From assembly GCA_965204335.1 (NCBI GenBank), contig OZ241982.1, positions 775,462 through 839,461 of the forward strand: a DNA stretch of 64,000 bases. Direction: 5' to 3'. This document shows, piece after piece, positions 2,151-58,239 of this stretch. The DNA is from Dehalococcoidia bacterium. Its GTDB lineage: Bacteria > Chloroflexota > Dehalococcoidia > Bin125. A model generated the notes under the pieces. It was given only the letters and a program-made list of their open reading frames with translations, was not told the origin of the DNA and did not search any database. The translations under genes were made by a program, and so were the position numbers. Each line of letters starts with the position of its first letter. Positions within the stretch are counted from its first letter, which is position 1.

Positions 2151-2280
2151 CCCCATCGCAGGGGAGACGCCGTGTATCCGTTTCTGCTCTCCCCCCGCGT
2201 TGCGGGGGAGATGCCGCGTATCCGTTTCTGCTCTCCCCCCGCGTTGCGGGGGGAGATGCCGCAGGCAGAGGGGGGCTTCC
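2151..2280. repeat. Tandem array of three GC-rich hairpin units (module B family) between cysE and cysS
   Basis: ccccatcgcagggg..., then ccccccgcgttgcggggg-agatgccgcgtatccgtttctgctct, then ctccccccgcgttgcggggggagatgccgcaggcagaggggggcttcc. Period about 44 nt, each unit with a C6GC/GCG6 stem. Confidence 0.85.
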
Positions 2281-4209: not shown

Positions 4210-5187
4210 TCACGTCGGGTCCTCGTCCGCCGCCAACTGGGCGAAGACCATCCGCCCCGCCTGTGTCTGGATCACCCGCTTCACGACCAGTGAGCGCATC
4301 TGGCCGATCGACTCCGCTCCTTCCTCGACCACCACCATCGTCCCGTCCGCCAGATAGCCCACGCCCTGGTGTTCGCCGCGTCCGCGCTCGATCACCTCGA
4401 CCGTCAACGACTCGCCCGGCAGGACGTTGGTCTTCACCGCATTGGCCAGCACGTTGAGGTTGAGCGTTCTCACACCCTCCAGCTCGGCGACCCGTGCCAG
4501 GTTCGCGTCCGTCAGGGCCAGCGCTGCACCGCGCTCGACCGCCATGCGCACCAGCCGCGCATCCACATCGCCGTCGGTCTCCGACGATCCGTCGTCGACG
4601 ATCTCGGTCGTGACGGTCTCTTCTCCCTGCAGCCGTGACAGCAGCTCCAGTCCGGCTCGGCCCCGGCCCCGCCTCAGCGCGTCCGAACTGTCCGCCACCC
4701 GGCGCAACTCATCGAGTACGAAGCGGGGCACGACGATATTCGCAAGAATGAAGCCGCTGCTCGCCACCTCGGCGATACGCCCGTCGATGATTGCCGAGGT
4801 ATCGAGGATCACTTCCGAGGGCGCCGGCGGGCGGGTCAGCGCCACCGACTCGGCCCGACCTCGGACCGTGTTCACGAACCGCTCCACCTCGGCGCGCCGA
4901 CCCAGCGCCACGCCGACTCCGATCGGCGCCAGCAGAATCGCCACGCCGATTGGCGCAAAGTCGCCGGCCGCGCCGGGCAGGTTGTCGAGCACGGTCGACA
5001 GCAGCGACGCGGCGACCAGCGCGGCCACCAGCCCAAACCCGCCCAGCAGGATCTCCAGCGTCGACAGCGAACGCCAGATGCCCTGCCGAAACCACGTGAC
5101 CGGATAGAGCAACCGGTCCCAGAACCGAAACGCTGCCTCCAGCACGACAGTCCCCAACAAAGAAAATGGCGGCCATGCGGCCGCCAA
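4210..5187 (-). CDS. yacL: YacL-like membrane-anchored PIN plus TRAM domain protein
   Basis: N-terminal transmembrane helices, PIN core (VILDTSAIIDGRI...VVPRFVLDEL) and C-terminal TRAM (GESLTVEVIERGRGEHQGVGYLADGTMVVVEEG). Conserved synteny yacL-ispD-ispF-cysE-cysS. Confidence 0.8.
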   Translation of the reverse strand: MAAAWPPFSLLGTVVLEAAFRFWDRLLYPVTWFRQGIWRSLSTLEILLGGFGLVAALVAASLLSTVLDNLPGAAGDFAPIGVAILLAPIGVGVALGRRAEVERFVNTVRGRAESVALTRPPAPSEVILDTSAIIDGRIAEVASSGFILANIVVPRFVLDELRRVADSSDALRRGRGRAGLELLSRLQGEETVTTEIVDDGSSETDGDVDARLVRMAVERGAALALTDANLARVAELEGVRTLNLNVLANAVKTNVLPGESLTVEVIERGRGEHQGVGYLADGTMVVVEEGAESIGQMRSLVVKRVIQTQAGRMVFAQLAADEDPT

Positions 5188-5282
5188 TCAGTCCAGAGCG
5201 GTCAACCGCCCAATAAATCCGGGCGCATCCCTGCGCACTCCAATCATACAGGATCCCACCACCCCCGTCCCACCACCCTCCC

Positions 5283-5450
5283 TTCCGGTCCCCTCTCCCC
5301 GAGGGAGAAGTCTGCCCCGCACTTGATGCGGAGGGTGAGAGCCTGCCCCCGCGTAGGCGGGGGGCGAGGGCCCTCCGACCCACCGCACACTCCCTCCGAT
5401 GCCCCGCACTTGATGCGGGGACAACCGGGCCTCCCCGCCTGCGCCCCGAG
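5283..5450. repeat. Composite interspersed repeat cluster (degenerate module C, module A copies, a B-like hairpin)
   Basis: cccctctccccgagggagaag, ccccgcacttgatgcgg, cccccgcgtaggcggggg, ccccgcacttgatgcgggg. Each shares modules with ten or more other loci in the window. Confidence 0.85.
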
Positions 5451-5650
5451 GCCGTGTCGACAAGCACCATGTCGTATAGGGACGCCCTAGCGCGACTCCA
5501 CAGGTACGCGACCAGCGCCGGCGGCAAAGTAAGAAATCCGGTGAAGCCGGTGTCGATCACTGCATCGATCTCGCGCACCGCACCCGCCGGGCCCTGCACC
5601 GTCAGCCTGATTACTGCCTCATAGGCGGGGCTAACCGCGCCCTCGATCAC
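5445..5650 (-). pseudogene. Retropepsin-like (clan AA) aspartic protease fragment, 3' end replaced by the repeat cluster
   Basis: GTG start overlapping the upstream stop as GTGA. IRLTVQGPAGAVREIDAVIDTGFTGFLTLPPALVAYL carries the DTG catalytic motif typical of bacterial retropepsin-like domains. The frame then runs into repeat-derived low-complexity sequence after about 70 aa. Confidence 0.45.
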
Positions 5651-5916
5651 CCGGCGCGTCCCAGAGGGCGGCCACCCATGTGATGCAGCGTCCGATGCCC
5701 AACCCTCAGCAGCCAGACGTCGACGGCCTCTGGCCGCTGCGCGCGCAGACCCTTGGACGCCGCCCGCACGTCCTCAGCCAGCGCCCAGCAGGCGCTCTCC
5801 ACGTCGATCGCGACATATGCCCCGGCATGATCCGGCTCCACTTGCGCCCGCACAACGCGCTCGTAGATCTCGTCGCCCAGACGGGCGATCTCCTCGGCAG
5901 ACCGCGACTCCGACAT
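5647..5916 (-). CDS. Small acidic protein of unknown function (DUF5678-like pattern), translationally coupled to the aspartic-protease fragment
   Basis: 89 aa. The GAYVAIDVES...VWLLRVG pattern resembles small partner proteins of the DUF5678 type. 4-nt GTGA overlap with the downstream gene. Confidence 0.55.
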   Translation of the reverse strand: MSESRSAEEIARLGDEIYERVVRAQVEPDHAGAYVAIDVESACWALAEDVRAASKGLRAQRPEAVDVWLLRVGHRTLHHMGGRPLGRAG

Positions 5917-5967
5917 CGAAGGCTCCTCCGCTTCAGTATGTCAGACACACCATCTCGTCCCCAACGA

Positions 5968-6214
5968 CCCTCCCTCCGGTTCCCTCCCCCCGAGGGAGAA
6001 GCCTGCCCCGCACTTGATGCGGGGCCCAGACCTCCACCGTCGAACCCAAACCAAAGCTCTCCCCCAACTCCGCCATCCCCTCCGATCCCATCTCCCCCCG
6101 CCGCCAGGTGGGGGGAGATGCCGAAGGCAGAGGGGGGCTCCCTCCGCCCCAGACCCAACACCGAAGCCTGCCCCGCACTTGATGCGGGGATGTCACCAGG
6201 CGACAGAACGCCCC
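5968..6214. repeat. Composite interspersed repeat cluster (modules C-like, A, B, A plus an atgtcacNNNgacagaNNgcccc tail)
   Basis: ccccgcacttgatgcgggg occurs twice. The 60-nt cctccgatcccatctccccccgc...ggggggagatgccgaaggcagaggggggc block is nearly identical to 46657..46714. Confidence 0.85.
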
Positions 6215-6292
6215 ATCACACTCCCATACAGAACACCAGTTCACATATAATCGATCCCCTATCACGCGGCCGTCAGCGCAGGAGCCCGTCCC

Positions 6293-31770: not shown

Positions 31771-31812
31771 CCGATCAGTCCCCTCTCTCTCTGGAGACTT
31801 GGGCACAGACCC

Positions 31813-31858
31813 GTTTCCGGTCCCCTCTCCCCGAGGGAGAGGGTTAGGGTGAGGGCCC
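31813..31858. repeat. Module C interspersed repeat abutting the tRNA 3' end
   Basis: gtttccggtcccctctccccgagggagagggttagggtgagggccc. Confidence 0.85.
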
Positions 31859-31875
31859 GGCCGCATCTGGAGCGC

Positions 31876-32089: not shown

Positions 32090-32779
32090 GTGTTGCGTCT
32101 GCTCTATGGTCTACACATGTTCCGATTGACCGTCTCAACCATGGACGACGAGTTCGTCGCCCCCCTCCAACCCGGCCTGGAGCGCGAAGGCTTGCAGGTC
32201 GTCCGATACGCCCCGGCCGAAGGCAATGAGCCCGATCCCGCCGCGGCGCCGGATGTGCTCTTGCTCGACTGGCGTCACGCCGTGCCGGCCTCGAAGCCGT
32301 CCGAGGTGCAGGCCTGGCCCGACGCCATGCGCCTCGCCGTCCTGCGCCCCGCCGACACCCACCTGTTGGGGCCAACCCAGGAACTCGACGATTTCATGCT
32401 GGCGCCCGTGCATGAGGCGGAGCTGATCGCCAGGGTCCAGCTCGTGCTCTGGCGTCACGGACGGGCATTAACCCGGAACACCCTGGAGGCCGGCGACCTC
32501 GTCGTCGACACGTCCAACTACCAGGTCTTCGAAGGCGGCCGCTCGGTCTCGCTGACGTTCAAGGAGTTCGAGCTCCTGCGCTTCCTCATGACCCACAACC
32601 AGCAGGTCTTCACCAGGGAGACCTTGCTCAACCGGGTCTGGGGCTACAACTACTACGGAGGCTCGCGCACGGTCGACGTGCACATCCGCCGCCTGCGCTC
32701 GAAGCTCGAAGCCGGCGGCCAGCGCTACGTCGAGACCGTCCGAAACGTCGGCTACCGCTTCGCCCTCCCCCTCCGCTAA
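32090..32779 (+). CDS. Orphan OmpR-family winged-helix regulator with an atypical receiver domain (GlnR-like)
   Basis: C-terminal OmpR/PhoB wHTH (LTFKEFELLRFLMTHNQQVFTRETLLNRVWG...RTVDVHIRRLRSKL). Divergent N-terminal receiver-like domain. No histidine kinase adjacent. Upstream of glnA. Confidence 0.7.
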   Translation: MLRLLYGLHMFRLTVSTMDDEFVAPLQPGLEREGLQVVRYAPAEGNEPDPAAAPDVLLLDWRHAVPASKPSEVQAWPDAMRLAVLRPADTHLLGPTQELDDFMLAPVHEAELIARVQLVLWRHGRALTRNTLEAGDLVVDTSNYQVFEGGRSVSLTFKEFELLRFLMTHNQQVFTRETLLNRVWGYNYYGGSRTVDVHIRRLRSKLEAGGQRYVETVRNVGYRFALPLR

Positions 32780-32784
32780 CCCCC

Positions 32785-32846
32785 TCCGGTCCCCTCTCCC
32801 CCCGCTCCGCGGGGGGAGATGCCGCAGGCAGAGGGGGCTCCCCAGA
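32785..32846. repeat. Module C-start / module B hybrid repeat
   Basis: ccggtcccctctccccccgctccgcggggggagatgccgcaggcagagggggctcccc. Confidence 0.85.
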
Positions 32847-34563: not shown

Positions 34564-34565
34564 CA

Positions 34566-34716
34566 TCCGGTCCCCTCTCCCTGAGGGAGAGGGCTAGGGT
34601 GAGGGCCCCGCTCCATGGGTGAAGATGCCGCGACTCTTCCCCTCTCCCCCCGCTTCGCGGGGGGAGCCTGCCCCGCACTTGATGCGGGGATGTCACGTAG
34701 TGACAGAGGGGGGCAA
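34566..34716. repeat. Composite repeat C plus B plus A plus tail between the two glnA genes
   Basis: ggtcccctctccctgagggagagggctagggtgagggcc, ...ctccccccgcttcgcggggggag, cctgccccgcacttgatgcgggg, atgtcacgtagtgacagaggggggc. Confidence 0.85.
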
Positions 34717-46542: not shown

Positions 46543-46656
46543 GTCTACCTGCCGTCACCCGCTCTGAAAATGCGCACCAGATTCCCCAGTGCGAACAGAT
46601 CGTACCCGCGCGGCATAATCAGGGTCAATGTTTGGCCGACGAAACAGGCGAGCCCA

Positions 46657-46714
46657 TCCTCCGATCCCATCTCCCCCCGCTGTGCGGGGGGAGATGCCGA
46701 AGGCAGAGGGGGGC
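46657..46714. repeat. Module B interspersed repeat upstream of the nuo operon
   Basis: cctccgatcccatctccccccgctgtgcggggggagatgccgaaggcagaggggggc. Near-identical to 6078..6137 apart from the loop. Confidence 0.85.
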
Positions 46715-46766
46715 AGCGGCTTTGCCCACAGGTCGGCAGTGGAGTTGCTTGCAAAGGATGTCGAAG

Positions 46767-47258
46767 TCAGGGCGTAAGTCCAAGATCACTTTCATACTTG
46801 AACTCGATCGTCTCATTCACATCCTCGAGCTCCCGCGAGCCGGTCTTCACGTAGCCCAGACGCTCGTACAGCCGATGCGCATCCTCAAACCGCGTGTCCG
46901 ACCATAACTCGATCCGCCACGCCCCATGCTCGCGAGCCCACGCGACCCCGGTCTCAAACAACCGCCGGCCCAGTCCTCGCCCGCGCAGATGCGCGTCCAG
47001 ATAGAGCCGGTGCAACTCCACGGTCGGCCCATCGACCCGCTCCGCCGCAATCGAGCCCACCACAGCGCCGTCCCCGTCGCGCATGACCCACATCGCGCCG
47101 ATCGGCGAGCGGTACGGAAACGCCTGCTCCTCGGCCAGCAGATCCCAGAACTCATCCTCGGGATCCCAGATGAACCCGTACTCGTCGAAGACCCGGTGGA
47201 TCAGCTCGATCACCTCAGGCGCGGCTTCGTAGCCAGCCGGCTCTATCTGGAAGCTCAT
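46767..47258 (-). CDS. GNAT family N-acetyltransferase
   Basis: 163 aa with acetyl-CoA binding motif (RGRGLGRRLFE). Confidence 0.75.
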   Translation of the reverse strand: MSFQIEPAGYEAAPEVIELIHRVFDEYGFIWDPEDEFWDLLAEEQAFPYRSPIGAMWVMRDGDGAVVGSIAAERVDGPTVELHRLYLDAHLRGRGLGRRLFETGVAWAREHGAWRIELWSDTRFEDAHRLYERLGYVKTGSRELEDVNETIEFKYESDLGLTP

Positions 47259-47327: not shown

Positions 47328-48470
47328 ATGGGACCGCTCAGCGGCATTCGCATCATTGAATTCCAGGGCATCGGACCGGGCCCCTTCTGCGGCATGATCC
47401 TGTCCGACATGGGCGCCGACATCGTCCGCATCGACCGCGCCTCGAACGCTCCGGGTGAAGCGCCGGCCAATCCGCCCGGTGACCTGCTCGCCCGCGGCCG
47501 GCGCTCGATCGCGCTCGACCTCAAGAACCCCGAGGGCGTCGAGGTCGCGCTCAAGCTGATCGAAGGCGCCGACGCGCTCTTCGAGGGCTTCCGTCCGGGC
47601 GTGATGGAACGTCTGGGTCTGGGCCCGGACGTCTGCCTCGAGCGCAATCCCAAGATCGTCTACGGACGCATGACCGGCTGGGGTCAGGAAGGTCCGTACG
47701 CGCAGATGGCCGGCCACGACATCAACTACATCTCGCTGGCCGGTGCGCTGGCCCCGATCGCGCGCAAGGGACAGGTTCCGGTGCCGCCGCTCAACCTGGT
47801 CGGCGACTTCGGCGGCGGCGGCATGTACCTCGCCGTCGGCATGCTCGGCGCCCTGATCGAAGCGCAGCGCTCGGGCAAGGGCCAGGTCGTCGACGCAGCC
47901 ATGGTCGACGGCGCATCCTCGCTGATCACCTCCGTCCACGCCGGACTCGCGACCGGCAGCTGGCGGCGCGGACGCGCGGCCAACGTGCTCGACACCGGCG
48001 CGCACTTCTACGACGCCTACGAGACGCTGGACGGAAAGTTCGTCTCGATCGGCTCGATCGAGCCGCAGTTCTACGCCGAGCTGCTGCACCTGCTCGGCCT
48101 CGAGAACGAGGAGCTCCCGCACCAGATGGACAACACCCGCTGGCCCGAGCTCAAGGATCGCGTGACCGCCATCTTCCGCACCAAGACCCGCGCCGAGTGG
48201 GAAACCATCTTCGAGGGCTCCGACGTCTGCTTCGGCCCCGTCCTCGAACCGTGGGAAGCCCCCAACCACCCGCACGCCAAGGCCCGTGGAGCATTCGAAG
48301 AGGTCGCCGGCGTCGTCCAACCCGCCCCAGCCCCGCGCTTTAGCCGCACCGAATCGAAGATCCAGGGCCCGCCCGCCTACCCGGGCGAGCACACCGACGA
48401 GATCCTCGCCGAAATCGGCCTCAACGGCTCCCAGGGGGAACAACTCAAAACCGCCGGCGCCGTCGCCTGA
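47328..48470 (+). CDS. CoA-transferase family III protein (CaiB/BaiF / alpha-methylacyl-CoA racemase-like)
   Basis: N-terminus GIRIIEFQGIGPGPFCGMILSDMGADIVRIDR and catalytic Asp region. GAGGAG Shine-Dalgarno upstream of the ATG at 47328. Confidence 0.85.
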   Translation: MGPLSGIRIIEFQGIGPGPFCGMILSDMGADIVRIDRASNAPGEAPANPPGDLLARGRRSIALDLKNPEGVEVALKLIEGADALFEGFRPGVMERLGLGPDVCLERNPKIVYGRMTGWGQEGPYAQMAGHDINYISLAGALAPIARKGQVPVPPLNLVGDFGGGGMYLAVGMLGALIEAQRSGKGQVVDAAMVDGASSLITSVHAGLATGSWRRGRAANVLDTGAHFYDAYETLDGKFVSIGSIEPQFYAELLHLLGLENEELPHQMDNTRWPELKDRVTAIFRTKTRAEWETIFEGSDVCFGPVLEPWEAPNHPHAKARGAFEEVAGVVQPAPAPRFSRTESKIQGPPAYPGEHTDEILAEIGLNGSQGEQLKTAGAVA

Positions 48471-48506
48471 CGCATTGATTCGCACGGACGACTACGACCT
48501 GACGAC

Positions 48507-48676
48507 TCCCTCTCTCCCCCCGCTCCGCGGGGGGAGATGCCGAAAGCCCGCCCCCGGCCTGAACGGGGGGCAGAGGGGGCTCCCGCCAGGCAACCAACAG
48601 CCACCTCCCTCTCCCTCCGGGAGCGAGAAACCGAACCTCCCTCTCCCCCTGGGAGAGGGCCGGGGTGAGGGCTCCG
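48507..48676. repeat. Composite repeat cluster (module B, a cccccggcctgaacgggggg hairpin, ctccctccgggag, module C)
   Basis: tccctctctccccccgctccgcggggggagatgccgaaagcc ... cctctccccctgggagagggccggggtgagggctcc. Confidence 0.85.
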
Positions 48677-48690
48677 GAAAGCAACACCCA

Positions 48691-49737
48691 ATGGCCTCAA
48701 TCACCGACTACCGCCTCTACCCCGCCATCCAGGCCCAACCATCCGAGTGCGCCAAGCTCCTCAGCAGCGCCCAACCCTTCGACCGCGCGGCCCAAACCCT
48801 CTCGGACGCCTCCCGCGTCTGGACCGTCGGCATCGGCACCTCGTTCAACGCCGCCAACGCCGCCAGTTGGATGCTGCGCGCCGCCGGACTCGAAGCGCGC
48901 CCGCTCACGAGCTTCGAGTTCGCCACCTGGCCGACGGTCACCGACGGCGACGCCGTTCTCCTCTTCGCCCACACCGGCCGCAAGACCTACAGCGGCAACT
49001 CGCTGGCGCTCTGCATTGAGCGCGGCATCCCCGTCGTGCTGATCACCAGGGTCGAGACCGAATTCGACCTCGACTCCTTGCCCGACAGCGTGACCGTGCT
49101 GCACACGACCACGCAGGACCCGTCCTCGATGTACACGATCTCCCACACCACGGCGATGTCCGCGGCGGCGAAGATCGCCGACCTCGTCTCACCCGGCGCG
49201 ATAGGCGATATCTCGGAGATTCCATCGGCGCTCGCCTCGGCACTCGCACTGGAGGACGAAATTGCGGAGTTGGCGTCCGAGTGGTCGTCGGGGGCAATAG
49301 TCGCCCTGGGCGCAGGACCGATGTTGACCGCCGCCGAGGAGGCGCACATCAAGATCGCCGAAGCCGCGCGCCGCGCCGTCCGTCACCAGGAGCCGGAGTC
49401 CTTCCTCCACGGCCCCGTCGTCCAGATCACCGACTCCGACCGTATCCTCACCTTCGCCGCCAACGACGACTCGGCCGACCGGACCCGCGCGATCACGCAG
49501 TTGACGATGGACAACGGCTGCTCAGCCGCCTGGGTCGCGCCCGAGAGCGTGTCCGCCCCCGAATCCGCGCGTCACCTCACGCTGGCCGACCTAACACCTG
49601 AGTTGCTCGCGATCCCCGCCGTCGTCCCCGCGCAGCTGCTCGCCGGCCACCTCGCCGCCAACGACGGCGTCAACGCCGACGACTTCCGCACCGACGTCCC
49701 CGAGTTCCGCCAGGCGCTCTCAAAGCTGTCGCTCTAG
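48691..49737 (+). CDS. SIS (sugar isomerase) domain protein, AgaS/GlmS-isomerase-like
   Basis: Two SIS-like halves (VWTVGIGTSFNAANAASW; IVALGAGPMLTAAEEAHIK). ATG at 48691 just after the repeat cluster. Confidence 0.75.
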   Translation: MASITDYRLYPAIQAQPSECAKLLSSAQPFDRAAQTLSDASRVWTVGIGTSFNAANAASWMLRAAGLEARPLTSFEFATWPTVTDGDAVLLFAHTGRKTYSGNSLALCIERGIPVVLITRVETEFDLDSLPDSVTVLHTTTQDPSSMYTISHTTAMSAAAKIADLVSPGAIGDISEIPSALASALALEDEIAELASEWSSGAIVALGAGPMLTAAEEAHIKIAEAARRAVRHQEPESFLHGPVVQITDSDRILTFAANDDSADRTRAITQLTMDNGCSAAWVAPESVSAPESARHLTLADLTPELLAIPAVVPAQLLAGHLAANDGVNADDFRTDVPEFRQALSKLSL

Positions 49738-49748
49738 CGACCAGCCGT

Positions 49749-49791
49749 TTCAGTCCCCTCTCCTTCCGGGAGAGGGCTAGGGTGAGGGTCC
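49749..49791. repeat. Module C repeat in the 40-nt convergent gap. It overlaps the valS stop codon and last four codons.
   Basis: tttcagtcccctctccttccgggagagggctagggtgagggtccc. The valS C-terminal GPSP plus TAG stop are read from ggtgagggtccc on the minus strand. Confidence 0.85.
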
Positions 49792-52566
49792 CAACGCGCC
49801 GATACGCGATTCGATGTCGGCCTGCTGACGCTGGAGGTCGGCGGCGAGTTCTTCCGCCTGCTTGACGACCTCGGCCGGCGCCTTCGAGCGGAAGCCTTCG
49901 TTGGCCAGCTTCGCCTCCGCACCCCTCAGCCGCTTGAGGATGCCTTCGAGGTCCTTGTTCAGCCGGGCTCGCTCCTGCTCCAGATCGATCAGGCCGCCCA
50001 ACGGCAGGATGACTTCTGCGGCGGGCAGCACGGCAGACGCGATCTGGTCGGTGGGAGCCTGGGCTCGCTCAGCAACGATGGTCAGCGGTCGCGCACGGGA
50101 CAACACCTCGACGATCGGAGCCGACGCGCTCACGGCCTGAGCCACGTCCGCCTGCGGCAACACAAACGCTTCCGCCCACTGACCAGCCTGCACGCGGTAG
50201 TCGGCCCGAACCTGGCGGACTGCGGTAACGATCCCCTGCACAGCCGCGAACGCCTCCTCGGCCTCCAAGTCGCGTGAGGCGTCGCCAGGTTGCGGGAAGC
50301 GAGCTCCGATCAGCGCAGTGGCGTCGGCCGCCTCGCCGAGGTGAGGCCGAAGCTGCTGCCAGATCGCCTCGGTCACGAACGGCATCCACGGGTGCAGCAG
50401 ACGCAGCCCATCGTCGAGCACCTTGGTCAACACCGGCAGCGGCGTGAGATCTCCGTTGCGCAGGCGAACCTTGCTCGCCTCGACGTACCAGTCGAAGAAC
50501 TCGCCCCAGAGGAAGTCCTGGATCTGCCGGCCGGCCTCGCCGAGTTGGAACTGCCGCAGCAGTTCATCGACCGAGTCGGTCACCGCCTGCAGCCGCGAGA
50601 GGATCCAGCGATCCTCCAGCGCGGAGCCCCCCTCTGCCTGCGGCATCTCCCCCCGCGAAGCGGGGGGAGCAGGAGCCTGGGCATCGGCAATCTCGCCCAG
50701 CACGAACTTGGCGCCGTTCCAGAGCTTGTTGGCGAAGTTGCGCGAGCCTTCCAGCCGCTCGTCCGTCAGCCGCATGTCGTTGCCTGGCGTCGACCCCGTC
50801 GCCAACGTGAAGCGCAGGGCGTCCATCCCGTACTGGTCGGCCTTTTCCAGTGGGTCGATCACGTTGTCGAGCGACTTCGACATCTTGCGGCCCTGCGCGT
50901 CTCGGACCAGACCGTGCAGGTAGACCGTGTGGAACGGGGCCGAACCCATGTTGTAGCAGCCCAGCATGATCATCCGCGCGACCCAGAAGAAGAGGATGTC
51001 GTAGCCGGTTTCCATCACCGACGACGGGTAGAACCGCGCCAGGTCCTCCGAGTCGGCGTCGGGCCAGCCCAGCGTCGAGTGCGTCCACAGGCCCGACGAG
51101 AACCACGTGTCCAGCACATCCGGGTCCCGGACGAAGTCGGCGTCGTCGCACCACGGGCACTCGGTCGGGTCGGTCATCGCAACAATCGGGCGGGCGCCTT
51201 CGTCGATCGTGATCTGGCCGTCGTCCCCGGTGATGATCGCGTCCCCGTCGCAGCAGCGGCAGTACCAGGCCGGAATCCGGTGTCCCCACCAGAGCTGCCG
51301 CGAGATGCACCATGGCCGGATGTTGTCCATCCACTGCAAGTAGACGTTCTTCGAGCGTTCGGGAACGATCCGGACCTCGTCCTCGCGCACGACCCGCGCC
51401 GCTTCGGCCGCCATCTCGTCGGTGTCGACGAACCACTGGTTCGACACCAGCGGCTCGACCACTACGCCGGAGCGCTGCGAGTGCCCGACGTTGTGGATGT
51501 GCGTCTCGGTCTCGACCAGGTAGCCGTCCTCCTCCAGGTGCTGAGCGACCAGTTCCCGCGCCTCGTCCCGATCCATGCCCGCGTAGAGACCCGCCTCCGC
51601 CGTCAGCGTGCCGTCCCAGTCGACCACGCGGATCGGCTCCAGCCCGTGCCGTTCGCCGATCTCGAAGTCGAGCTGGTCGTGACCGGGCGTGATCTTCAGC
51701 GCGCCGGTGCCGAACTCCAGGTCGACGCCCGAGTCGGCGATCAGCGGAATCAGCCGGTCGAAGCCCCGCAGCGGCAGCCGAACCCGACGGCCCAGGTGCG
51801 GCTGCCAGCGTTCGTCGTCGGGATGGACGGCGATAGCGACATCTGCCGGAATCGTTTCGGGCCGCGTCGTGGCGATCACCACCCCGTCGTCCAGCTCGTT
51901 GCCGCGCTCGTCGACGAACGGGTAGCGCACATGCCAGAGCTTGCCTTCTTCCTCCTCGTACTCGACTTCCACGTCGGACAGCGCGGTCAGCATCTGCGGG
52001 TCCCAGTTGATGATCCGAGCACCGCGGTAAATCTTGCCGTCCTGGAACAGGTCGACGAACGTCTTGCGGACAGCGTCGCGCGGCGTCGGATCGAGCGTGA
52101 ACGCCGTGCGCTCCCAGTCGCAGGACGCACCCATCCGCCGCGCCTGCGAGGTGATCCGAGGTCGGGTCACCCCGACCCACTCCCAGACACGCTCCTCGAA
52201 CGCCTCGCGGCCAAGGTCGTGACGGGTCATCCCTTCGCGCGCGAGCTGCTGCTCGACCACGCTCTGCGTCGCAATCCCGGCGTGGTCCAGGCCAGGCAGC
52301 CACAGCGTCGGCTCACCGAGCATTCGGTGCCAGCGGATCAGGGCGTCCTCGATCGTCAGCGTGACCGCATGGCCCAGGTGCAGCACGCCGGTGACGTTGG
52401 GCGGCGGCATGATCACCGTGAACGGTTCCCGGTCCCCGTCCGACTCGGCCGGACGGAACCAGCCGTTGTCCTCCCAGAACGCATAGATCGGATCCTCGAC
52501 GATCGAGGCGTCGTACGCGCCGGTCAGATCGCTCAGGATTGAGAGGTCGAACGCTGTGCTGGTCAC
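49777..52566 (-). CDS. valS: Valyl-tRNA synthetase, containing an in-frame copy of the module B repeat
   Basis: HIGH motif (PPPNVTGVLHLGHA), KMSKS motif, editing domain, anticodon-binding DRWILSRL. Residues ...APPASRGEMPQAEGGSALE are encoded by the repeat at 50620..50666. Confidence 0.9.
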   Translation of the reverse strand: MTSTAFDLSILSDLTGAYDASIVEDPIYAFWEDNGWFRPAESDGDREPFTVIMPPPNVTGVLHLGHAVTLTIEDALIRWHRMLGEPTLWLPGLDHAGIATQSVVEQQLAREGMTRHDLGREAFEERVWEWVGVTRPRITSQARRMGASCDWERTAFTLDPTPRDAVRKTFVDLFQDGKIYRGARIINWDPQMLTALSDVEVEYEEEEGKLWHVRYPFVDERGNELDDGVVIATTRPETIPADVAIAVHPDDERWQPHLGRRVRLPLRGFDRLIPLIADSGVDLEFGTGALKITPGHDQLDFEIGERHGLEPIRVVDWDGTLTAEAGLYAGMDRDEARELVAQHLEEDGYLVETETHIHNVGHSQRSGVVVEPLVSNQWFVDTDEMAAEAARVVREDEVRIVPERSKNVYLQWMDNIRPWCISRQLWWGHRIPAWYCRCCDGDAIITGDDGQITIDEGARPIVAMTDPTECPWCDDADFVRDPDVLDTWFSSGLWTHSTLGWPDADSEDLARFYPSSVMETGYDILFFWVARMIMLGCYNMGSAPFHTVYLHGLVRDAQGRKMSKSLDNVIDPLEKADQYGMDALRFTLATGSTPGNDMRLTDERLEGSRNFANKLWNGAKFVLGEIADAQAPAPPASRGEMPQAEGGSALEDRWILSRLQAVTDSVDELLRQFQLGEAGRQIQDFLWGEFFDWYVEASKVRLRNGDLTPLPVLTKVLDDGLRLLHPWMPFVTEAIWQQLRPHLGEAADATALIGARFPQPGDASRDLEAEEAFAAVQGIVTAVRQVRADYRVQAGQWAEAFVLPQADVAQAVSASAPIVEVLSRARPLTIVAERAQAPTDQIASAVLPAAEVILPLGGLIDLEQERARLNKDLEGILKRLRGAEAKLANEGFRSKAPAEVVKQAEELAADLQRQQADIESRIGALGPSP

Positions 52567-57490: not shown

Positions 57491-57565
57491 CCCTCTCTCC
57501 CCTCCCTTCCCCTCTCCCCCCGCTTCCAGCGGGGGGAGATGCCGCAGGCAGAGGGGGGCTCCCAA
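57491..57565. repeat. Module B interspersed repeat between prs and a small hypothetical gene
   Basis: ccctctctcccctcccttcccctctccccccgcttccagcggggggagatgccgcaggcagaggggggctccc. Confidence 0.85.
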
Positions 57566-57643
57566 ACCTCCGCATGTCCCTATTCAACATCAGAACCTGA
57601 TAAATTCAGAACATACATACTCCACGAGACAAGGAACACCCCG

Positions 57644-57964
57644 ATGCCCAATCCCTACCATTTCCGCGCCAGGATCGACCGACTCTGGCGGCGCGCCAAC
57701 GCCCCCGGCCCCGGCTACAAGCAACTCAACGCCCTCGACGCCGTCGTCCGGGAACTGTTCGCCCCGAACGAGCGAGCCCGCCGCAACTATCAGCTCTACC
57801 TCGCCACCGACCCCTACGACGTCGCCCGCCACCTCCTCCGAGACCTCTACGACCGCACCTCCCCTTCCCCCTCTCCCCCCGCGCCTATTCAAGTCGCCCC
57901 CGCGCAGGCGGGGGCCGCACCGACTGAGGATGACCCGCTCGACGAAGACGACGACCCCTGGTAA
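57644..57964 (+). CDS. Small hypothetical protein with a repeat-derived Pro/Ala-rich acidic C-terminus
   Basis: 106 aa. AT-richer promoter-like region upstream. Residues SPSPSPPAPIQVAPAQAGAAP are encoded by module B-like sequence ccccttccccctctccccccgcgcc...cccccgcgcaggcggggg. Confidence 0.5.
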   Translation: MPNPYHFRARIDRLWRRANAPGPGYKQLNALDAVVRELFAPNERARRNYQLYLATDPYDVARHLLRDLYDRTSPSPSPPAPIQVAPAQAGAAPTEDDPLDEDDDPW

Positions 57965-58035
57965 CCGCCAACCTCCTCCCAGGTCCCCGCTCGTTTTTTC
58001 TCTCAGCGGATCACCCGCCTCCGGCCCCGCCGTGC

Positions 58036-58120
58036 CTGCCCCGCACGACAATGCGCCTCCCCCTTCCCCTCTCCCCCCGCCTGCGGCGGGGGGAGAGGTC
58101 ACGTAGAGACAGAGGGGGGC
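58036..58120. repeat. Degenerate module A plus module B plus tail repeat upstream of groES
   Basis: cctgccccgcacgacaatgcg...ctccccccgcctgcggcggggggagaggtcacgtagagacagaggggggc. Confidence 0.8.
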
Positions 58121-58239
58121 ACGCCGAGAGGCAGCTCCCCCCAACCTGATAGCGCGGCTCCCTCAGTTCAGTGGATTACGCAACGACGGCATGGCAGCGT
58201 CATCGCGACGTAATGACCGCTTCGGTTACTCCCGCTTGC

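Follow-up and report, generated by a model that had tools for sequence, protein, structure and literature searches.

Probable re-termination of valS by a mobile hairpin repeat of a REP/MITE-like family in Dehalococcoidia-type Chloroflexota

The valyl-tRNA synthetase gene valS (49777..52566, minus strand) encodes an intact protein of 929 aa, and its present stop codon was very probably supplied by the insertion of a mobile repeat, module C. This module would be one member of a REP/MITE-like family that occupies tight spacers and tolerated coding segments in the window, by which we mean the whole 64,000-nt stretch of Dehalococcoidia bacterium DNA analysed here. Compared with its orthologues, valS would represent a clean filled-versus-empty case of a small mobile hairpin changing the stop codon of an essential gene.

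The valS 3' end and the valS-SIS spacer

On the minus strand, valS ends with TTG GGA CCC TCA CCC TAG, read as Leu-Gly-Pro-Ser-Pro-stop, with the stop codon at 49777-49779. The gene converges with a Pfam SIS-domain gene (48691..49737, plus strand; stop at 49735-49737) that has its native end ...FRQALSKLSL*. The gap between the two genes is 39 nt (49738-49776), and one module C copy (49749..49791, plus strand) covers the gap together with the final 12 nt of valS. This copy consists of the hairpin CCCCTCTCC-TTCC-GGGAGAGGG followed by CTAGGGTGAGGGTCC, and the plus strand at 49740-49799 reads ...ctc tag cgaccagccgt TTCAGTCCCCTCTCCTTCCGGGAGAGGGCTAGGGTGAGGGTCC caacgcgcc.... In an alignment of this copy with 11 further module C copies, taken from the window and from related loci, the conserved span extended from a CCTCCGR leader to GGGTGAGGG-YYC. 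Read as its reverse complement, the module C tail gives the three codons CCC TCA CCC (Pro-Ser-Pro) at the end of valS and the TAG that follows them (49777..49788, minus strand). The CTA corresponding to this TAG falls in an alignment column that is YTA in 7 of the 12 copies.

A valS-based scan of species-representative genomes yielded 49 related loci at 74-92% protein identity, nearly all from MAGs labelled Dehalococcoidia or Chloroflexota; several of these relatives presumably derive from marine-sponge metagenomes, to which their bin names point. In the ~30 closest orthologous loci the protein ends ...ESRIGALG, followed directly by TAG, TGA or TAA, and almost all of the more distant loci have ...LG-type tails without PSP. 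ValRS ended ...LG* in ~40 loci and in 9 further database proteins, and the Pro-Ser-Pro plus stop extension was missing from more than 40 valS orthologues. No GPSP ending occurred among 120 further database ValRS proteins, in which ...ELG and ...ALG were the common endings. Since the orthologues end ...ALG*, the terminal glycine of the window protein (...IGALGPSP*) is ancestral, and therefore only Pro-Ser-Pro and the stop are new. A candidate at L022, with a retained stop followed by PSP, was rejected as a chance match, the DNA there being CCAAGCCCC and not the element.

In nine syntenic relatives, valS and the SIS gene are likewise convergent, with no element between them. In this element-free state the two stops overlap in L005, are 8-10 nt apart in L008, L035 and L034, and are separated by no more than ~50 nt in the others, and the SIS C-terminus ...FRxALSxLxL* is the same in the window and in the orthologues. 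Because the relatives are element-free and the SIS end is unchanged, parsimony points to a lineage-specific insertion into the tiny valS-SIS spacer. The earlier note had proposed that module C fills this gap and provides the last four valS codons (GPSP) with their TAG. The comparison bears out the filling of the gap and the origin of Pro-Ser-Pro and TAG, and takes the glycine out of the element's contribution.

Reading past the valS TAG gives GPSP*PSPGRRGD*, with a TGA still in frame, which is part of a C-TGA directly past the element (49750..49753, minus strand). With 36 nt deleted, the sequence reverts to ...TTGGGCTGA and ...TTG GGC TGA, identical at this point to L008, L035 and L034, which suggests that the element inserted inside the last Gly codon and displaced the old stop to its far side; the in-frame C-TGA may be the third base of the ancestral Gly codon plus the old stop. 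The conserved leader CCTCCGG is missing from the valS copy, which leaves the left edge of this copy, and with it the precise point of insertion, ambiguous. In the proposed course of events, a module C copy would have entered the convergent spacer (~0-20 nt in the closest syntenic relatives) at the valS stop or 1 nt before it. The ancestral stop after ...Ile-Gly-Ala-Leu-Gly would have been displaced, leaving the C-TGA in frame just past the element, and translation would now enter the element for 9 nt and stop at the TAG of a CTAG motif, adding Pro-Ser-Pro.

A two-step history, in which module C first inserted just past an intact valS stop and a later deletion or point mutation led to readthrough to the element TAG, is rather unlikely. 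Two window elements do start 1-4 nt past the stop codons of the OmpR-like and glutamine synthetase genes and leave these stops untouched, and the consensus end of the element, GGGTGAGGG-YYC, could itself give a GGA Gly codon, with the native GGC-stop then deleted. However, the in-frame C-TGA stands exactly at the far side of the element, for which a single insertion is the simpler account, and no intermediate state was found among the valS loci, the database proteins or the results of the junction search.

It is highly improbable that the junction is an assembly or sequencing artefact, that is, a mis-join or collapsed repeat hiding a real end ...GALG*. Short repeats are classic points of mis-assembly, and the exact valS/module C junction had no match in the other public assemblies and metagenome contigs searched. 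Nevertheless, the valS-SIS adjacency is syntenic in nine related genomes, both flanks align right up to the element, and a like junction (...LGPSP*) occurs independently at a GNAT gene on the closed chromosome L003 (OZ244861.1). A single module C insertion thus remains the preferred account of the valS end.

Module C has one stop-bearing frame per strand, giving GPSP* in reverse and ...PLPxGEG* in the forward direction. Only one of its three reverse frames contains a stop, and the other two run open through the hairpin. Because the module has a stop on each strand, clipped gene ends tend to receive short extensions that we infer to be harmless, which is probably why copies that clip gene ends persist.

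The hairpin repeat family in the window

A direct-repeat search of the window returned three main families: module A (CTGCCCCGCACTTGATGCGGGG), module B (CCTCCGGTCCCCTCTCCCCCCGC-loop-GCGGGGGGAGATGCCGCAGGCAGAGGGGG) and module C (TCCGGTCCCCTCTCC-loop-GGAGAGGGYTAGGGTGAGGGYC). The hairpin core CCCTCTCC-N5-GGAGAGGG was present in 6 copies against 0.05 expected from shuffles, the 22-mer tail of module B in 6 copies against 0.01, and the module A core in 5 copies against 0. The repeat family is genuine and lies far above chance. It comprises several mutually unrelated hairpin modules of 45-60 nt with >75% GC, mostly intergenic and found combined and nested. The inner hairpin of module B is enclosed by pairing between the leader CCCCCTC and the tail GAGGGGG, which form terminal inverted repeats (fold z = -2.5). 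The fold z-scores of single modules are uninformative because the background has 67% GC, and the valS copy of module C, folded in context, gave z = +0.3 and -0.2, no better than shuffles. Rfam searches at the gathering and E <= 1 thresholds matched tRNA-Thr only and returned nothing for the repeats. Modules A, B and C would constitute a REP/REPIN- or MITE-like family of GC-rich, imperfectly palindromic units of ~35-60 nt, apparently common to a clade of uncultured Dehalococcoidia-type Chloroflexota.

Intergenic DNA amounts to ~5.9 kb, or 9% of the window, and many spacers are shorter than 20 nt. Repeat clusters were found in 11 of 50 spacers (seven tandem, two convergent and two divergent), all on the plus strand; they total ~1.26 kb, which is ~21% of the intergenic DNA, and three occurrences in the window are in frame or overlap coding sequence. 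Module B with an extra hairpin lies between two minus-strand genes (2191..2274). In the cluster at 5257..5450, a module C that has a module A nested in it is joined by a GC hairpin and by another module A; the one at 5948..6215 contains C-like, A, B and A units and a short GTCAC-N-GTGACAGA hairpin tail. Between a GYD-domain gene and tRNA-Thr there are a partial copy and a full module C (31780..31858); this spacer measures 105 nt in the window, versus 6-8 nt with no repeat in relatives. A cluster of C, B and A with a short hairpin tail (34564..34715; fold z = -2.3) starts 1 nt past the TAG of the first glutamine synthetase gene. Module B alone lies downstream of the GNAT gene (46656..46715) and in a divergent (5'-5') intergenic region (57496..57560), and module B with two module C copies is located upstream of the SIS gene (48501..48675). 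Downstream of a small-protein gene there are a module A-like unit, a module B hairpin and a short hairpin tail (58040..58121). As the genes are tightly packed, surviving copies stand almost only in short gene-end spacers, where they would often start within a few nt of a stop codon.

The elements had also been suggested to act as terminators in both directions. On neither strand are the hairpins followed by a T-tract, and a consensus terminator scan over 45-53 kb found no site at any element. On the valS strand, the hairpin at 49749..49791 is followed by GGGGACTGAAACGG, and on the SIS strand by CTAGGGTGAGGG. Judged by these features, the elements are not canonical intrinsic (Rho-independent) terminators, and since two clusters moreover lie between divergent genes, a bidirectional terminator role is not favoured. 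More broadly, the hairpins might be gene-end signals selected by the host (terminators, stabilisers of mRNA 3' ends or translation-attenuating structures), with the valS overlap as a by-product of the tight spacer. The stems are stable, with 8-11 bp of GC, at least one gene 3' end borders 9 of the 11 repeat-bearing spacers, and a role in termination and in stabilising mRNA has been hypothesised for REPs (PMC3733652). This explanation is nonetheless unlikely: besides the missing T-tracts and consensus sites, no transcript ends between divergent genes, copies occur within coding regions, the orthologous spacers of relatives have no repeats, and orientation tracks the chromosome strand rather than the direction of transcription.

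Repeats within genes and at gene ends

A complete module B (CTCCCCCCGC-TTCG-CGGGGGGAG plus ATGCCGCAGGCAGAGGGGGG; ~50623..50675, minus strand) lies in frame inside valS itself, where it encodes ...PPASRGEMPQAEGGS... between NKLWNGAKF and LEDRWI; it is the only minus-strand copy in the window. Among the 45 loci compared, the NKLWN-DRWI loop of ValRS is 34-38 aa long without repeats and 43-72 aa long with repeats, and the inserts in relatives consist of one to three repeat-derived peptides of at least three types. A second, N-terminal loop (FRP...PFTVIMPPPN) has 29 aa in ~35 loci; in L005 it holds a clean module B insert (+15 aa), and in L008 another element. The same family also inserts in frame into tolerant, disordered or surface segments, namely into these two loops of ValRS and into the linker region of a small acidic protein. 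Across the uncultured Chloroflexota clade, it appears to write short peptides repeatedly into tolerant ValRS loops.

The small protein is encoded at 57644..57964. The repeat-derived in-frame segment in its linker (57855..57915, plus strand) begins with the module B leader and left arm (57855-57882; 89% match to the intergenic copy at 58053) and continues into a GCCCCCGC-GCAG-GCGGGGGC hairpin (57896-57915). The protein belongs to a multi-copy family with 288 database members, several per genome, in which the 70-residue N-terminal domain and the acidic end ...EEDDDP[LW]* are conserved and the linker between them is hypervariable. In some members the linker contains the peptide SPPAERGEMPKAEGG from module B, LPLPLGEGWGEG from module C with TGG or CGG replacing TAG, or LPLGEACPALDAGGRGEG from module A nested in C; SPPASGGGRCHGVTEGG and VAPAQAGA are further linker peptides in the family. 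AlphaFold2 predicted a confident four-helix domain at residues 1-72 and a disordered linker and tail, with pLDDT <50 at residues 81-102. The protein had no Pfam or NCBIfam match, and Foldseek found no PDB structure resembling the model at E < 1. Because the last residues and the stop are conserved in the family, the repeats supply an internal disordered segment and not the 3' end. The module B-like origin ascribed to the C-terminus in the earlier note is thus correct for 57855-57915 and misplaced for the end of the protein. A presumed near-identical genome, approached through the 97%-identical small protein P0121, was discarded, the contig context there being unrelated to the window; this context indicates that the small-protein gene is a roaming or paralogous cassette.

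Outside valS, module C also provides the ends of other genes. The GNAT acetyltransferase gene of the closed chromosome L003, an orthologue of 46767..47258 in the window, ends ...YEGELAPLGPSP (...APLGPSP) inside module C, in the same frame as valS, and the L007 orthologue has a decayed module C copy and the end ...APLERSP*. The 25 other GNAT orthologues, that of the window (...SDLGLTP*) included, end differently; the site at which module C supplies the GNAT stop in L003 and L007 is occupied by the module B at 46656..46715 in the window. An EndoIII-like gene of L054 ends ...ADDFRFPLPEGEG / ...CPGADDFRFPLPEGEG (...FPLPEGEG*) at the forward-frame TAG of module C, and the L050 orthologue ends ...CPGADDFIYG* with no element. 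The overlap of element and coding end observed at valS therefore recurs in other genes.

In a crude census that covered 0.92 Mb and 165 elements, ORF stops lay inside 3 elements, with one of the ORFs doubtful, and five stops were no more than 6 nt away from one; the EndoIII stop, for which the census gave a distance of 4 nt, is a further case. Up to 33 copies were located inside stop-to-stop ORFs, which is an overestimate. An L091 ORF ending ...AGPSP* looked spurious or antisense and was not counted. On the sequences compared, the remodelling of 3' coding ends by repeats is real and recurrent but rare. As a general claim of the earlier note, it holds for valS and extends to the GNAT and EndoIII-like genes, but not to the small-protein tail or to two other genes of the window, the OmpR-like regulator and a protease gene.

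The OmpR-family wHTH regulator (32117..32779, plus strand; 220 aa from Met10 of the ORF) has the native end GYRFALPLR*. This end had been thought to lie in repeat DNA running into module C at 32785. The repeat there is module B (32781..32840, plus strand), which starts 1-4 nt past the regulator TAA and adds nothing to the gene. The Pfam Trans_reg_C domain ends at ...GYRF, leaving the 5-residue tail ALPLR, and more than 70 orthologues of the same length, down to ~55% identity, end GYRF-x-x-P-L-R-stop. The C-rich coding DNA (ttcgccctccccctccgctaa; ttcgccctcccccttcgctag and similar) was also found in L053 (95% identical), L051 and L052, and none of these three has a repeat downstream of the regulator orthologue. 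Repeat-free orthologues thus share the regulator end, which, by the criterion that the earlier note itself had set, refutes its supply by a repeat.

The supposed retropepsin-like gene, an ORF at 4709..5650, does run through a repeat cluster as claimed. It contains only a 5' fragment (~50 codons; 5501..5650, minus strand) of a clan-AA DTGF aspartic protease gene, and the remaining ~73 codons are missing in every frame. The fragment matched TIGR03698 (clan AA DTGF protease) at profile positions 2-39 of 107 with 25 bits, against a cutoff of 57. Since homologues (~123 aa at full length) align to residues 1-50 only, the ORF represents a gene fragment and has no repeat-supplied end; homology stops near 5500, ~50 nt short of the repeats. 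Direct repeats of 75 nt flank the fragment on both sides (5257-5331 and 5948-6022).

For annotation, these findings mean that gene callers will report element-derived tails (GPSP, PLPxGEG) and insertions such as GEMPQAEGG as genuine protein sequence, and that ORFs may be extended through repeats.

Related systems and the mode of movement

The repeats represent a new family in a new host and not a new kind of system. The phenomenon has already been documented in Coxiella, enterobacteria and Rickettsia, and current understanding is not overturned; what is added here are the stops on both strands of one module, the repeated ValRS-loop inserts and the strand polarity. Like REPs and REPINs, which are mobilised by RAYT transposases, the repeats are short GC-rich imperfect palindromes in many, mostly extragenic copies. 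They also share with them the arrangement as singlets and clusters, with apparent inverted doublets in related contigs, and the inheritance within a clade with gain and loss site by site. In contrast to REPs and REPINs, several unrelated hairpin modules are combined and nested here, and copies are found in frame within essential genes, where REPs do not usually occur. Whereas a terminal GTAG or CGTC tag marks most REPs (PMC3733652), the consensus of module A, B or C has neither at its end, and GTAG was found only in the loop of the variant tail hairpin (GTCAC-GTA-GTGAC).

With the terminal inverted repeats of module B, the family also resembles MITEs. In Coxiella burnetii, all functional genes affected by QMITE1/2 carry the insertion at the 3' end; a few C-terminal residues are added with little change in protein size, and in one case the stop alone (PMC5896051). 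QMITE1/2 are likewise small palindromic non-autonomous elements at the 3' ends of functional genes, but they are longer and unrelated in sequence and host, and the present family also occurs in frame within an aminoacyl-tRNA synthetase. The enterobacterial RU-1, RU-2 and RU-3 elements are fused to the 3' end of a conserved enzyme gene with loss of the normal stop, and the fusion extends the protein beyond its conserved domain (Delihas 2007, PMC2759123). These elements differ from module C in length (103-168 bp) and in adding tens of residues, whereas module C, having a stop of its own, adds only 3-9.

Rickettsia palindromic elements (RPEs) are roughly 100-150 bp long and AT-rich, in contrast to the present modules of 45-60 nt with >75% GC, which are mostly intergenic and belong to a Chloroflexota host. 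RPEs insert in frame into protein genes, including housekeeping genes, at tolerant positions (Ogata et al. 2000, 2002, as cited in PMC5896051). The ValRS loops show the same pattern of in-frame palindromic repeats in a conserved gene with insert-free orthologues. No relation to RPEs was found in Rfam and the other searches.

Copies come and go at orthologous sites, and the repeats therefore behave as non-autonomous mobile DNA. Their orientation is strongly polarised: 24 of 25 asymmetric marks in the window are on the plus strand, which has a negative GC skew (binomial p = 1.5e-6 for the marks and ~1e-3 for the clusters). The 27-mer of module B was found in 45 metagenome stretches, with many copies per contig, and no exact module B tail was present in viral contigs. 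On the 740-kb contig Ga0209543_1000001, minus-strand copies occupy 17-359 kb, where the local skew is mostly positive, and plus-strand copies occupy 536-718 kb, where it is negative, with two exceptions overall. On short contigs the relation between polarity and local GC skew is noisy, with ~17 concordant versus 11 discordant loci.

IS200/IS605-type single-strand transposition targets the lagging-strand template (PMC6006769). The strand polarity of the copies and its switch with the sign of GC skew on the 740-kb contig would fit a replication-linked single-strand insertion of this type. Unlike in IS200/IS605, no TnpA was found, and the mechanism would follow from orientation, which is noisy on short contigs. 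An exploratory tblastn search with RAYT and IS200 TnpA probes gave no match at E < 1 in the window plus 50 loci (~0.6 Mb); since RAYTs are typically single-copy per genome (PMC5581495), their absence from <1 Mb of scattered DNA is uninformative. No consistent target-site duplication was seen in the filled/empty comparisons at valS-SIS, the ValRS loops, GYD/tRNA-Thr and the OmpR-like gene. Beside tRNA-Thr there is a possible TGGAGC repeat, unconvincing as a target-site duplication.

We regard it as possible, though on balance doubtful, that the repeats are an active strand-polarised REP-like family transposing via single-stranded DNA at replication forks. If so, the family would be a recurrent source of new coding sequence in an uncultured clade, adding peptides to the essential ValRS at two loops in many lineages, building the whole variable linker of a multi-copy small-protein family, and re-terminating genes through built-in stops on both strands. 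It would then be a GC-rich, free-living or symbiont analogue of the Rickettsia RPEs with a tractable insertion logic. The strand polarity gives a way of testing how the repeats move. The window, in which all intergenic copies are on the same strand, holds no inverted doublets. In related metagenome contigs there are inverted pairs ~65 nt apart, made of a module B tail and a variant tail with a different small hairpin, and one such doublet folds as a long hairpin (z = -4.2).

Repeat-derived peptides in loops of ValRS

A complete copy of module B, one of the GC-rich hairpin repeats (modules A, B and C), was found on the minus strand within valS at 50623-50675, the sole minus-strand copy within the window. 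It was read in frame as the peptide PPASRGEMPQAEGGS in the loop of ValRS, the valS product, between NKLWNGAKF and LEDRWI. In related genomes this loop contained zero to three repeat-derived peptides of several types. The N-terminal loop FRP...PFTVIMPPPN represented a second insertion hot spot (related loci L005:4100-4200 and L008). Its length was 29 aa in ~35 orthologues; the L005 protein carried a clean module B insert of 15 additional residues (LSPFQGEMPQAEGVP), and that of L008 had gained 8 aa derived from another element.

Repeats in spacers and neighboring genes

The spacer between the GNAT acetyltransferase gene (46767..47258) and the conserved region upstream of nuoA was occupied by module B in the window (46656-46715), whereas module C was located there in the closed chromosome L003 (10339-10380) and in the related locus L007. 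The leader GGGATCGGAGGA was common to all three spacers at an unchanged position. This points either to one hairpin type having been replaced by, or converted into, another, or to the repeated use of one target. In two further relatives, L038 and L018, the GNAT reading frame continued into the conserved 'cagacattgaccctg' region 5' of nuoA and ended in ...PDIDPA*. The C-terminal tail of the protein was different in nearly every genome, indicating general plasticity at this end of the gene.

In the window, 105 nt (31771-31875) separated the GYD-domain gene from tRNA-Thr(CGT), in comparison to 6-8 nt in the related loci L053 and L051, and nearly all of the added length consisted of repeat sequence. 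A TGGAGC motif from the 3' end of the tRNA gene recurred beside the element in this spacer. Upstream of the start of the SIS gene (48691..49737), which is convergent with valS, an open frame at 48286-48690 ran through modules B and C (...LPLPLGEGRGEGSGKQ...). At L003:8400-8523 there was an upstream ATG, with which gene callers could give the SIS protein a repeat-coded N-terminal extension.

For the OmpR-family regulator (32117-32779), Pfam matched the C-terminal wHTH domain only; the N-terminal 140 residues did not match Response_reg at E <= 0.01, and the precomputed domains of its orthologues likewise lacked Response_reg. The receiver domain of this regulator may be degenerate or atypical.

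Arrangement and orientation of the repeats

At 5283-5342, a copy of module A was nested within module C at a constant position, GGGAGAAGT[CTGCCCCGCACTTGATGCGG]AGGGTGAG. In two homologues of the small protein (P0157 and P0183), this same arrangement was translated as LPLGEACPALDAGGRGEG, which suggests that module A has a site-specific target. Two 75-nt composite repeats (5257-5331 and 5948-6022) were arranged in the same orientation with 81% identity. Between them lay an 89-aa gene (5647..5916) as well as the truncated fragment of a DTGF protease, the 3' part of which may have been deleted via recombination between repeats.

Oppositely oriented pairs ~65 nt apart, each combining a module B tail with a variant tail that carries a different small hairpin, were identified at L085:3755-3900 and about 12 other metagenome loci. 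These opposed tails resembled REPIN doublets, and one of them folded into an extended DNA hairpin (z = -4.2); the window itself contained none.

All 11 intergenic repeat clusters of the window (1-64000) were carried on the plus strand, whose GC skew is negative. On the 740-kb metagenome contig Ga0209543_1000001 (loci L054, L058, L060, L062, L065, L076-L078, L089 and L095), the strand that carries the module B copies changed from minus to plus within the interval 359-533 kb, and the local GC skew changed sign together with it. Taken together, these patterns suggest that repeat orientation is linked to the replichore.

A small-protein cassette

The small protein (57644..57964) belongs to a multi-copy family with several members per chromosome. 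The family is characterized by an acidic tail in addition to a four-helix N-domain, and had no match in Pfam, NCBIfam or PDB. The small-protein gene formed a 430-nt cassette (57606-58036) with its flanks, ~38 nt on the upstream side and 72 nt, including a T-run, on the downstream side. A 91% identical counterpart was located in another genome (L050:9962-10394), within an entirely different gene neighborhood.
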